The notes below the pieces were generated by a model. The model was given only the letters and a program-made list of their open reading frames with translations, did no database searches and was not told where the DNA came from. From Thermodesulfobacteriota bacterium (GTDB taxonomy: Bacteria > Desulfobacterota_D > UBA1144 > Nemesobacterales > JAJCZQ01), in contig OZ244044.1 of NCBI GenBank assembly GCA_965215275.1, positions 477,548-541,547 on the forward strand: a DNA stretch of 64,000 nt, read 5' to 3'. Made by a program: the position numbers and the translations under genes. The number at the start of each line of letters is the position of its first letter. Positions within the stretch are counted from its first letter, which is position 1. Positions 35,920 to 44,371 of this stretch are shown piece after piece.

Positions 35920-36105
35920 TTTACGGAACAGTAAAGACTGGTTTGTCGATACCACTGACTGCCTTTTATAAGGGATTATCGGTAAAATCGTTATATGTAA
36001 ACAGCCTGAAGCATGTACTGTTCGGCACCACTGCTTCCCACAACAATATAGTACATTCCCGATATGAGGCGAATTTGCTATCAGATTATTGTTGCCGTCA
36101 CACAA
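35920..36105 (-). pseudogene. Frameshifted, internally deleted relic of a fourth protease paralogue (end of N-domain plus start of S8 domain)
   Basis: The minus strand reads LCDGNNNLIANS, then (shifted frame) LISGMYYIVVGSSGAEQYMLQAV, then ..FTDNPL..QW-like DNA. Compare QLCDSNDDLIASS...RLRPGTYYIVVGSSGADSYQLTV...NFTDDPLYGCQWHL in the intact copies. Confidence 0.6.
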
Positions 36106-36141
36106 ATGTAAATTAGTTCAATGTTTTGAAAAAACGCATTG

Positions 36142-42047: not shown

Positions 42048-42280
42048 CTTTTAAGATTTTATTCTGTTAATGTAATTTATGGTATAGATTTTATCAAACT
42101 TTAACTCTTTATCATTCTATGAAGTTTTGCATTAATCTTGTTAGCTTTACAGTCAATGAGTGTGTATATCTTTTCCTACCCGTGCAAGGTAAAGGTTATT
42201 TTTTCCATCAGATGTTGACAGGCGTGTGACTTGAAGATCTGGCTCTCTCAACACCTCAGGGATTAGGCAGAACCGCATTA

Positions 42281-44371
42281 CTACATCTTTATATAAGATC
42301 TTCTCTTCCTTCTGATCACTACTGATACAGGTATCAGCATCAGACATGTCATTACTCCGAACAGACCAGAAACAACGTCGTTTTGATCGGAAACTGAACA
42401 TCCTCCACCACCTCCAGTATCAGGATCTGGTGTTGGGTTTGGTCCTGTACTACCCCTCCTGTGCCCATAAACTTTAATGCTCCATGAGTGTAAAGTCCCG
42501 GTATCTAACTCTTCAGTATCATCTATTTTCAAAATCCATTCTCCAGCAGGATCTTCTCCGAGGTGTTTGGCTGAACCAAAACGATGAGTGCGGAAGTTGT
42601 AACGAAAGTCTGTACTAGTGAATGAAGGGTTAGTTCTAATAAGTGATAAAGCATCGTCTACATATTCCTCAGTAAGTTCCGACACAGTACCGTCAGGGGA
42701 GTTTATCTGTATATTCAGATCTGGAAAGAACTCGTGAGAGAAATTGAGATTGATCTCTACGAATTCTGTAAAAAGATCAGTATCGGGTATGTTCAGTCTG
42801 GAAGTAATTGTTCCGGCTACGTCACCTACAGCGTCGGGGATCGCTGTATTAATATTACCCGAGGAAGCAGGCAGGGTTCTCATCTGTGGAACAGTGGTCC
42901 AGCTTCTGGCAAGTTCTACCGCTGCCTCAGCATCCACCACGCCAAAACCGTACTTTGGATTGTAATTATACCTGTCTGTATCAGGACCGTATTTAACTGC
43001 TACTTCTTCCCAGTCCAAGTCGGTCTGGTCGGTCTTGCGGGCTGAAGCTGCCAAGATCAACTTCAGGTCACGCCAGCTCAGATCACTGTTTACCTCACGC
43101 ATCAGTGCGGCAACCCCTGAAACGACCGGAGCAGAGAACGACGTTCCGCTGCCTCCAAAATCATAGCGGTCCTTATTACCGGTCGTCGTAATAAACGAAC
43201 CCGGAGCACATACCCACAGATTTACTCCCTCTTCTGAAAAAGAACTCGACGTACCAGAACCATTTACCGAACAGACGGAAGTTACAGCGTAGTAGTTAGA
43301 ATATTCTTCAAAATTAGCCTGGTCGAACTGAGCATATCCATTGCCAGCTGCCCAGCTGTAAAAAACCCCTTTACCACCAAACCCTTCCCTGATACCCCTT
43401 TCCACTGCCATTTCCCAAGCGCTATCAGCAGAGTGAAGAACAGCAGTATCCGGTGCTCCCCAGCTGTTGTTGGATACCGCAGTTGTAGTTCGGTTACGGG
43501 TCATAGCGTCTACCCTGTTAAGAGAAATAAAATTACCCCCTCCTATCAAGTTATAATGATAGATACTTGCCTGAGGTGCCACTCCTCTTATGCCAGTTCC
43601 ATTATCACCCACTGCTGCTAAAATGCCCGCTACATTTGTACCATGAGCATCTGAAGGGTTGAATACATTTCTGTTTCCAGAGTAATCATGGTTCAGGCTG
43701 GGATTTACATTGGCAGCCAGGTCTTCATGATCGGGGTCCATACCATTATCTACCACAGCCACGTTAACTCCATTTCCAAATACTGCATCATTCCAGATCC
43801 CCTCTATGTTTATATCTTCTCCGGCGGCTATTGCCTGCCCGTTGAACTCCAACTGCCCCGTATTTTTCAGATGCCACTGACACCCGTATAAGGGATCATT
43901 GGTAAAATTGGTAGTAATGCCTCTGCAATCAGATAGCAAAGTATTATAATCAGTATCTGTTGCAACTGTAAGCCGGTAACTATCAGCACCGCTGCTTCTC
44001 ACAACGATATAGTACGTTCCGGGTCTGAGGCGGGTTTGTATAGTGGCCATACCGGACATAGTCACTTCAGTAGTACTTGCTATCAGATCATCATTGCTGT
44101 CACAAAGCTGTAAACTGTATTCTCGATTATTATTGGTGAAGGTTGTCTCTATTTTTACATTGACGTCGGATGCCGGGGCTATCCGAAAATATTCCAGTCC
44201 ACCGGCACTTCCAAAACTTCCATTGTGTGCTGCTCCGTCCACTGTCAACGTGGCTTCAATCGCTTCACTGGAGTCGCAATTATTAACACTGGTCTGACCA
44301 TATGCACCTATGGACATAAAACACATAGAAGCAAATACAAAGCACAGCAGATAAAATGATGGAACTTGCAT
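42281..44371 (-). CDS. Secreted kexin-like S8 serine protease with PPC-like N-domain, P-domain and GGGGC-TM-RRKRRS anchor (no stalk repeats)
   Basis: 696 aa; VAVVDNGMD / DAHGTNVAG / SGTSFSAPVVSG catalytic triad motifs; P-domain ...GEDPAGEWILKIDDTEELDTGTLHSWSIKVYGH; C-terminus GGGGGCSVSDQNDVVSGLFGVMTCLMLIPVSVVIRRKRRSYIKM. Confidence 0.92.
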   Translation of the reverse strand: MQVPSFYLLCFVFASMCFMSIGAYGQTSVNNCDSSEAIEATLTVDGAAHNGSFGSAGGLEYFRIAPASDVNVKIETTFTNNNREYSLQLCDSNDDLIASTTEVTMSGMATIQTRLRPGTYYIVVRSSGADSYRLTVATDTDYNTLLSDCRGITTNFTNDPLYGCQWHLKNTGQLEFNGQAIAAGEDINIEGIWNDAVFGNGVNVAVVDNGMDPDHEDLAANVNPSLNHDYSGNRNVFNPSDAHGTNVAGILAAVGDNGTGIRGVAPQASIYHYNLIGGGNFISLNRVDAMTRNRTTTAVSNNSWGAPDTAVLHSADSAWEMAVERGIREGFGGKGVFYSWAAGNGYAQFDQANFEEYSNYYAVTSVCSVNGSGTSSSFSEEGVNLWVCAPGSFITTTGNKDRYDFGGSGTSFSAPVVSGVAALMREVNSDLSWRDLKLILAASARKTDQTDLDWEEVAVKYGPDTDRYNYNPKYGFGVVDAEAAVELARSWTTVPQMRTLPASSGNINTAIPDAVGDVAGTITSRLNIPDTDLFTEFVEINLNFSHEFFPDLNIQINSPDGTVSELTEEYVDDALSLIRTNPSFTSTDFRYNFRTHRFGSAKHLGEDPAGEWILKIDDTEELDTGTLHSWSIKVYGHRRGSTGPNPTPDPDTGGGGGCSVSDQNDVVSGLFGVMTCLMLIPVSVVIRRKRRSYIKM

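Follow-up and report, generated by a model that had tools for sequence, protein, structure and literature searches.

A mosaic, expanded family of secreted kexin-like proteins with long G/C tracts in an uncultured Thermodesulfobacteriota bacterium

Three secreted kexin-like genes at one locus

We analyzed a stretch of 64,000 nucleotides (nt) from a Thermodesulfobacteriota bacterium (assembly GCA_965215275.1, contig OZ244044.1, positions 477,548 to 541,547 of the forward strand), referred to here as the window, and the three related genes that it contains, which we designate A, B, and C. Positions are those of the window unless another locus is named. Gene A (42281..44371, minus strand) encodes a protein of 696 amino acids (aa) that is comprised of a signal peptide, a PPC-like N-terminal domain (N-domain), a catalytic domain of peptidase family S8, a P-domain, and a putative sorting tail, with no He_PIG repeats. 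Gene C (50687..53608, plus strand; 973 aa) has an intact catalytic triad, three He_PIG repeats (52574..53416), and the same type of tail (53474..53605). Gene B, on the minus strand, is present as two open reading frames (ORFs). The 5' ORF (40722..41390; 222 aa) encodes the signal peptide and N-domain and is out of frame past a run of 13 G residues (G13). The 3' ORF (36142..40779; 1,545 aa) encodes an S8 domain with Gly at the position of the catalytic Asp, followed by a P-domain, 11 He_PIG repeats, and the tail.

Pfam analysis detected Peptidase_S8 in all three proteins, with scores of 137 bits for A (E = 9e-40), 110 bits for B, and 131 bits for C against a cutoff of 21.8. P_proprotein (PF01483) was found directly 3' of the catalytic domain in each (57 to 62 bits against a cutoff of 21; E = 1e-16 for A). 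Among proteins of known structure, A is closest to furin, kexin, and the Aeromonas sobria protease ASP (E about 1e-43), and Foldseek gave the same result. The furin and kexin alignments span both the S8 domain and the P-domain. Within the B 3' ORF, the He_PIG array (36325..39381, minus strand) consists of 11 units of 91 to 93 aa each, and units 1 to 9 are 77 to 94% identical in DNA; Tandem Repeats Finder reported a period of 279 repeated 9.9 times at 36600..39361.

An earlier reading of the stretch, the preliminary description, was made by inspection of the letters and translations. Its assignment of A, B, and C to one family with an S8 domain and a P-domain agrees with the significant Pfam matches in all three, and its He_PIG repeat numbers of 0, 11, and 3 are those given by Pfam (PF05345; 11 stretches in B [E = 1e-111], three in C [E = 7e-30], and none in A). 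The near-identical signal peptide and the HSWSIKVYGH end of the P-domain that it listed are both visible in the translations, and its proposed common C-terminal anchor corresponds to the tail with GGGGGC, a helix, and RRKRR in A, B, and C. It had, however, treated 36142..41390 as one gene, where there are two ORFs split by a frameshift at G13. The description of A and B as tandem copies was accurate in that they are neighbors but not in making them directly adjacent, as a gene for a 211-aa protein (ORF211) intervenes.

Inspection of the catalytic residues revealed that the triad of A is intact (D208/H243/S411). B has VAVVGDG where A and C show VAVVD[NS]G; the position of furin Asp153 is therefore occupied by Gly in B, with the His and Ser residues retained.

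No Inhibitor_I9 propeptide was detected by Pfam in the same chain of A, B, or C; the N-domain is all-beta instead. The suggestion that this domain is related to PPC domains met with a mixed outcome. The Pfam matches to PPC (PF04151) lie below the gathering score of 25.9 bits (C, 20.5 bits [E = 9e-4]; A, 13.4 bits [E = 0.15]). In contrast, the AlphaFold model of the N-domain of A (all-beta; predicted local distance difference test score [pLDDT], about 75) superposes on the PPC domain 5sv5 (template-modeling [TM] score, 0.76) and on the ColG collagen-binding domain 1nqj (TM, 0.77), and the modeled fold supports a PPC-like assignment. The full-length model of A was poor (pLDDT, 44); the N-domain and P-domain alone were used.

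A relic of a further family member lies between the B stop codon and the convergent hslU gene (35948..36112, minus strand). It is frameshifted, as had been described, and derives from an N-domain; its size is about 165 nt rather than the 190 nt originally given. It contains at least two frameshifts and matches the N-domain at LQLCDSNDDLIAS, RLRPGTYYIVVGSSGA, and DPLY.

At 49828..50687, the gene for an Asp/Glu racemase is followed after 40 nt by the start of gene C, which thus stands at the end of a same-strand run of clpS, clpA, thioesterase, and racemase genes. Given this run and the 40-nt gap, gene C may be cotranscribed with housekeeping genes.

Gene conversion and unequal crossing-over among family copies

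In a codon alignment, the identity of A and B ranged from 0.62 to 0.95 per 150 nt. Over all comparisons, identity between the two forms a mosaic of 62 to 96%. The mosaic extends to synonymous sites. The synonymous divergence (dS) between A and B was 0.23 in the N-domain compared with 0.62 in the S8 domain, and that between A and C was 0.53, 0.46, and 0.27 across the three regions. A clusters with B over nt 113 to 463 and mostly with C elsewhere.

The preliminary description had estimated about 95% identity between A and B near both ends, with more diverged catalytic middles. The best 170-nt window does reach 95.9%, but it sits about 350 to 520 nt into the gene. At the other end, the last 125 nt of B, in its tail (36145..36276, minus strand), are 92% identical to those of A. 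The greater divergence of the middle was as stated (69 to 73% identity, with 62 to 66% in the P-domain), and identity between the copies is mosaic rather than uniform.

The locus was then compared with the syntenic locus of a relative (L001; assembly GCA_964348445.1), which is 95.5% identical across A to C. Nucleotides 400 to 530 of A (43842..43972, minus strand) match its paralog B and not its own ortholog in the relative: 17 of 18 informative sites favor B over the ortholog (permutation P ≤ 2e-4). L001 also carries an extra tandem copy and a fragment of TnpB. The two tandem copies in the relative are 100% identical over the first ~200 nt, and the ortholog of C has two He_PIG repeats compared with three in the window. 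The architecture thus is not invariant among relatives. Because of the conversion tract, the extra copy, the identical copy starts, and the change in repeat number, we conclude that gene conversion has occurred between paralogs and that unequal crossing-over has altered both copy number and He_PIG repeat number.

The TnpB fragment (Cas12f1-like_TNB) lies in an insert of ~830 bp (L001 12309..13136) at the junction of the two A-type tandem copies. From this position, it seems that an insertion sequence either participated in the duplication or became trapped during it.

Long G/C tracts in and beside family genes

Further inspection of B revealed two long homopolymer tracts. G13 (40785..40797, minus strand) lies between EGVWN and VAVVGDG and splits the two ORFs; with 14 or 11 G residues, B becomes one ORF of about 1,749 aa without a stop, and downstream of the tract an ORF of 4.6 kb is open. 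The other tract (41394..41413, minus strand), A9 and then G11, fills the 21-nt spacer from the stop codon of ORF211 to the ATG of B. It occupies the ribosome-binding region of B, and G11 ends 3 nt before the ATG. Runs of this length are far above expectation. The G/C runs of the window comprise 30 of length 5, none of length 6 to 10, and then one each of 11, 12, and 13, so that three runs of at least 11 were found compared with about 0.016 expected.

Related tracts were found in the relative and in other assemblies. At the two sites in B, the relative has G10 (versus G11) and a G run of at least 12 (versus G13); its contig ends at the latter, degenerating into G-rich junk. At loci L001, L080, and L081 of the relative, every C/G run of at least 9 lies in or beside a family gene. 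Three signal-peptide leaders in the relative (MN.LFR.IPPP...) contain C9 25 nt past the ATG, and all three are out of frame. Among leader tracts, C8 is in frame (L082, from another assembly) and C9 is out of frame (L080, L081, L088, and L089). One ortholog, P0410 (686 aa), is read in frame in the genome of the window, whereas C9 puts it out of frame in both L088 and L089, whose assemblies (GCA_964348445.1 and ERZ21848999) may share reads. For the other paralogs in the genome of the window, tracts were judged from protein N termini. The family leaders carry a common conserved promoter-like cassette, and a promoter and terminator scan gave nothing above shuffled controls. Taken together, these observations indicate that single members are probably switched on and off at the long G/C runs.

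At L081, a C10 run (19371..19380) between the S8 domain and the P-domain splits a paralog into ORFs of 540 aa and 956 aa, and tracts in the family thus occur at three kinds of position. An orphan 5' cassette was noted in the window at 19380..19523 (plus strand). It contains the promoter-like ACTATTCTTGACATTC...TATTAT, an ATG, and C12, and its 33-aa ORF (MTMQIFIPPPP...) has no S8 gene behind it. This orphan leader sits in a stretch of low GC content (35 to 40%).

Family expansion and loss of catalytic residues

A homologue search returned about 40 related proteins on a single contig of 1,990,023 bp that also carries the C of the window. Three further related proteins were hidden inside clusters, giving about 43 protein calls on this contig, some of which may be halves of interrupted genes. 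The Asp/His/Ser triad is kept in 4 of 39 same-genome paralogs plus A itself, i.e., in A, C, P0003, P0005, and P0008. In the other paralogs, the His is replaced by Arg, Ser, or Thr, Ala, Phe, or Val often takes the place of the Ser, and the Asp site reads VVSDG or VVSNG. The triad is retained in all 68 of the more distant homologues. As all of these keep it and few of the paralogs here do, the expansion appears to have yielded mostly pseudoproteases. The ratio of nonsynonymous to synonymous divergence (dN/dS) among family copies is 0.3 to 0.55, which argues against long-dead genes.

One derivative in the relative (L080, about 8607..9544) lacks both the S8 domain and the P-domain. It is made up of an out-of-frame leader with C9, a single He_PIG region, and the GGGGGC tail, from which it appears that the signal peptide, stalk, and anchor can occur without the protease body.

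When genome contigs were searched with protein A alone, no match was obtained, and with an alignment only relatives of 40 to 50% identity were recovered. Metagenome scans with the leader pattern gave no match, and those with the N terminus of B gave four distant matches and no useful loci. No description of this kexin-like protein family was found in the literature searched.

The C-terminal tail as a candidate sorting signal

The tail of A (42284..42415, minus strand) has the GGGGGC motif, a hydrophobic helix with LIPVS, and then RRKRR. The order of GGGGGC, a short charged spacer, the LIPVS helix, and RRKxR was found in all family members seen, and in the 21 members compared, conservation of Cys658 and LIPVS...RR is 90% or higher. 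Three-part, Cys-containing sorting signals are processed by myxosortase-type CPBP proteases (10.1101/2023.06.07.544157), and such sorting has been demonstrated experimentally for MrtX and TraA (PMC11980579). The family tail has the same three parts as these signals, namely, a motif rich in Gly with one conserved Cys at its end, then a hydrophobic helix, and finally a cluster of Arg and Lys. Unlike them, it has a charged spacer (xxSDQNDxxS) between the Cys and the helix and is seen on one protein family only. By its sequence, we consider the tail a candidate addition to the sorting systems of the myxosortase type.

In the relative (GCA_964348445.1), a 211-aa Rce1-like (CPBP) gene lies directly upstream of a family paralog. 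Its best NCBIfam matches are the myxosortases MrtP, Mrt_core, MrtC, and MrtS (E = 1e-18 to 1e-15), with MrtP (67 bits) and Mrt_core (64 bits) both below the cutoff. It retains the EExxxR, FxxxH, and HxxxN motifs. The nearest named CPBP homologues come from metagenome-assembled genomes (MAGs) of Thermodesulfobacteriota and Dadabacteria.

ORF211 and its linkage to S8/P-domain genes

ORF211 (41412..42047, minus strand; 211 aa) is the upstream partner of B and consists of an N-terminal membrane helix and a conserved domain of 150 aa. It matched no Pfam or NCBIfam family, and 733 representative homologues were found. Among loci that encode S8/P-domain proteins of 40 to 50% identity, a homologue of ORF211 lies upstream on the same strand in 71 of 78. 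It is within 300 nt of the S8/P-domain gene in 63 of the 68 loci that could be analyzed (median distance, 40 nt). These distant loci belong mostly to Dehalococcoidia MAGs but also to Binatia, Acidimicrobiia, and others, and several carry sponge-related names. In two proteins from other organisms, P0199 (3,846 aa) and P0250 (1,286 aa), an ORF211-like domain is fused N-terminally to an S8 domain and P-domain; P0199 continues further downstream with cadherin, fn3, and CARDB repeats. In P0211 (5,724 aa), from another organism, an ORF211-like domain is found near the N terminus. The strong upstream linkage and the fusions suggest that ORF211 and B form an ancestral two-gene module, and to judge by its distribution this arrangement is found across phyla.

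The model of ORF211 (pLDDT, 81) comprises a membrane helix, a beta-rich part, and a beta-alpha-beta-beta-alpha-beta unit. Comparison with PDB sequences gave no match. Foldseek returned generic beta-alpha-beta-beta-alpha-beta folds only, with a best E value of 0.13 (1itp, TM of 0.46; 8c4x_B, TM of 0.60). Hidden Markov model alignment (hhalign) of ORF211 with the prodomains of subtilisin BPN' and furin, whose sequences were entered by hand, also gave nothing. An assignment of ORF211 as ORF2-like or I9-like was considered and rejected, there being no sequence match or significant fold match.

ASP (PDB 3hjr and 3wqb) provides the closest comparison. Like other S8B proteases of the kexin/furin type, ASP has the S8 domain followed directly by the P-domain, and the DPLYGCQWHL start of the catalytic domain is common to these proteins and to the family described here. 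Like the family here, ASP is without an I9-type propeptide in the chain and has a small accessory gene alongside. However, the ASP chaperone ORF2 is encoded downstream of the protease gene, whereas ORF211 is upstream and resembles ORF2 neither in sequence nor, to a significant degree, in fold. The S8B proteases, including ASP, also differ from this family in that the latter has the PPC-like N-domain, the He_PIG stalk, and the C-terminal sorting tail, and most of its paralogs are dead. That ORF211 acts as a foldase or inhibitor is a guess, and we hold it to be somewhat doubtful.

A probable contingency-type surface family and its alternatives

We favor, with a probability of roughly 0.6, the interpretation that A, B, and C belong to a contingency-type family of variable surface proteins, which are secreted and kexin-like and which vary by gene conversion, repeat change, and probable tract switching. 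The family appears to be lineage specific and greatly expanded and, by analogy, resembles the variable surface coats of host-associated bacteria. A typical member would have a Sec signal peptide, usually a PPC-like N-domain, a domain of the S8B type, a P-domain, a stalk with between 0 and 11 He_PIG repeats, and a tail that contains Cys. Members would be exported via the Sec pathway, after which the C-terminal helix and the basic cluster would anchor them in the inner membrane. Processing at GGGGGC by a myxosortase-type CPBP protease would probably follow, and the product would be displayed on the cell surface. Slipped-strand change at the G/C runs would set single members in or out of frame, presumably reversibly. 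The presence of the tracts, their excess over chance, their effect on the reading frame, and their differences in length between strains were all observed in the assembled sequences. Since most paralogs are catalytically dead, variable binding or coat display is more likely to be the main role of the family than proteolysis.

The idea of a recombining, diversifying, secreted surface family rather than a single housekeeping protease was already present in the preliminary description and is supported here, with the location at the cell surface a presumption. The word "protease" is open to doubt in the case of B and of most of the ~40 paralogs, in which catalytic residues are lost. The earlier reading is also incomplete, as it overlooked the G/C homopolymers, which are the likeliest switching device, and ORF211.

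Contingency loci of Neisseria, Campylobacter, Haemophilus, and Bordetella likewise have long G/C runs in 5' coding regions, inside genes, and at the ribosome-binding site. Their runs also are far above chance, set the frame by their length, and differ in length between strains. They differ from the present case in that here the genes are ~40 mostly dead kexin-like genes in the 2-Mb genome of an uncultured marine bacterium, for which reversibility is presumed. The subtilase pseudoproteases CspC of Clostridioides difficile and PCSK9, the latter of which acts by binding rather than cleavage, are similar in that the fold is kept and the catalytic residues are replaced. In contrast to these, loss in the present family occurred many times within one expanded set of paralogs.

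The interruption of B, its missing catalytic Asp, the absence of triad residues from about 35 of 40 paralogs, the relic at 35948..36112, and the orphan leader (about 19380..19454) could also be neutral damage in a family that is decaying in a small symbiont genome, and a dN/dS of 0.3 to 0.55 is fairly relaxed. We regard such erosion as unlikely. Run lengths are bimodal, with none of 6 to 10, and the tracts occupy conserved sites in paralogs and across strains, beside a conserved promoter and leader cassette. Moreover, long ORFs are still open past the tracts, dN/dS is well below 1, and one ortholog that is out of frame in some genomes is in frame in another. It is similarly improbable that G13 was simply miscounted, so that B is one intact gene of 1,749 aa and the window encodes three constitutively expressed surface proteins. 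Short-read and HiFi methods both miscount long G runs, and the contig of the relative breaks down exactly at the B tract. Nevertheless, two independent assemblies contain the tract, and the hypermutable site is thus real regardless of the precise number of G residues. At another member, C9, which is out of frame, is given by both GCA_964348445.1 and ERZ21848999, two assemblies that may share reads.

Polymerase slippage or ribosomal frameshifting on G13 might instead provide a steady low level of full-length B, as a form of dosage tuning. Slippage on long homopolymers is established in other bacteria, and the ORF downstream of G13 is intact. Strains differ in tract length at the level of DNA, however, and we consider this RNA-level rescue very unlikely. 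We also give little credence to the notion that A and C, and B if restored, are ordinary feeding proteases that digest external protein, with the repeats as mere spacers. The triads of A and C are intact, kexin and furin are their closest relatives, and all distant homologues keep the triad. Against this, most of the paralogs cannot be proteases, and a membrane-anchoring tail, recombination, and homopolymers would be unexpected for bulk digestive enzymes.

Several points weigh against the interpretation as a switched surface family. Simple gene decay would likewise be compatible with the lost catalytic residues, the relics, and the frameshifts. Assemblies are prone to error in the length of homopolymers, so that single counts may reflect assembly error, and we infer reversible switching within a population from assembled sequences. 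One C9 run (L082 6188..6196) is inside an unrelated gene of the Cons_hypoth698 family; not all long runs in the lineage, therefore, belong to the S8 family. The proposal that every late gene start marks an out-of-frame gene was rejected, as P0004 is in frame and simply miscalled. When compared with the curated sorting-signal models (MYXO-, JDVT-, Synerg-, and CGP-CTERM), the tail scored below the cutoff, with Synerg-CTERM (14.4 bits; cutoff, 22.5) and JDVT-CTERM (12.5 bits; cutoff, 27) the best. In ~125 kb of window and relative DNA, the tail is confined to this family and the one S8-less derivative. A myxosortase-like gene was found neither in the window nor, for the 1.99-Mb contig, among the homologues listed. 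A link to sponges is possible and is drawn solely from where distant homologues occur.

A more far-reaching version can be put forward only tentatively, and we think the odds are rather against it. According to this version, a small-genome marine, possibly sponge-associated bacterium would devote ~5% of its DNA to ~40 surface-anchored kexin-like proteins, mostly dead, which are switched by slippage at G/C tracts, reshuffled through gene conversion, and serve as a variable coat toward host or phage on the scaffold of a proprotein convertase. ORF211 would be an undescribed, membrane-anchored, separately encoded foldase or propeptide substitute serving kexin-like proteases that lack a propeptide in several phyla, and the GGGGGC tail, together with a myxosortase of its own, would constitute a fifth sorting signal of the Cys type.

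To our knowledge, homopolymer-switched surface families are known mainly from animal pathogens. If the interpretation of a switched surface family is correct for this uncultured marine, possibly sponge-associated bacterium, mutualists or commensals of early-branching animals would use the same homopolymer strategy, and the genes described here would be concrete ones for studying how host and symbiont recognize each other or how phages are evaded. The turning of a kexin-like protease into pseudoproteases on this scale would be a clear case of the reuse of an enzyme fold as a scaffold for binding or display. A by-product of the analysis is the conserved two-gene module of an ORF211-like gene and an S8/P-domain gene, which occurs in many phyla and is without a family assignment.

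Genomic surroundings

The locus is surrounded by housekeeping genes of a Gram-negative bacterium. A family scan of the window identified ClpB, HtpG, GlnRS, ProRS, enolase, an RND pump, TonB-dependent receptors, ETF, a FemAB-like protein, and an XerC-like recombinase. ClpS and ClpA were identified from the syntenic annotation of the relative and HslU from its translation only. An Rfam scan of the window returned one tRNA only. A tandem pair of genes at 57566..62887 (minus strand) encodes TonB-dependent receptors of 840 aa and 847 aa. At 20627..21336 (plus strand), two small overlapping ORFs resemble a toxin-antitoxin pair by eye, one having an AbrB/MazE-like N terminus (VRQIGNSLGVVLPKEV) and the other the Doc/Fic-like motif HPYIDGNKRTA.

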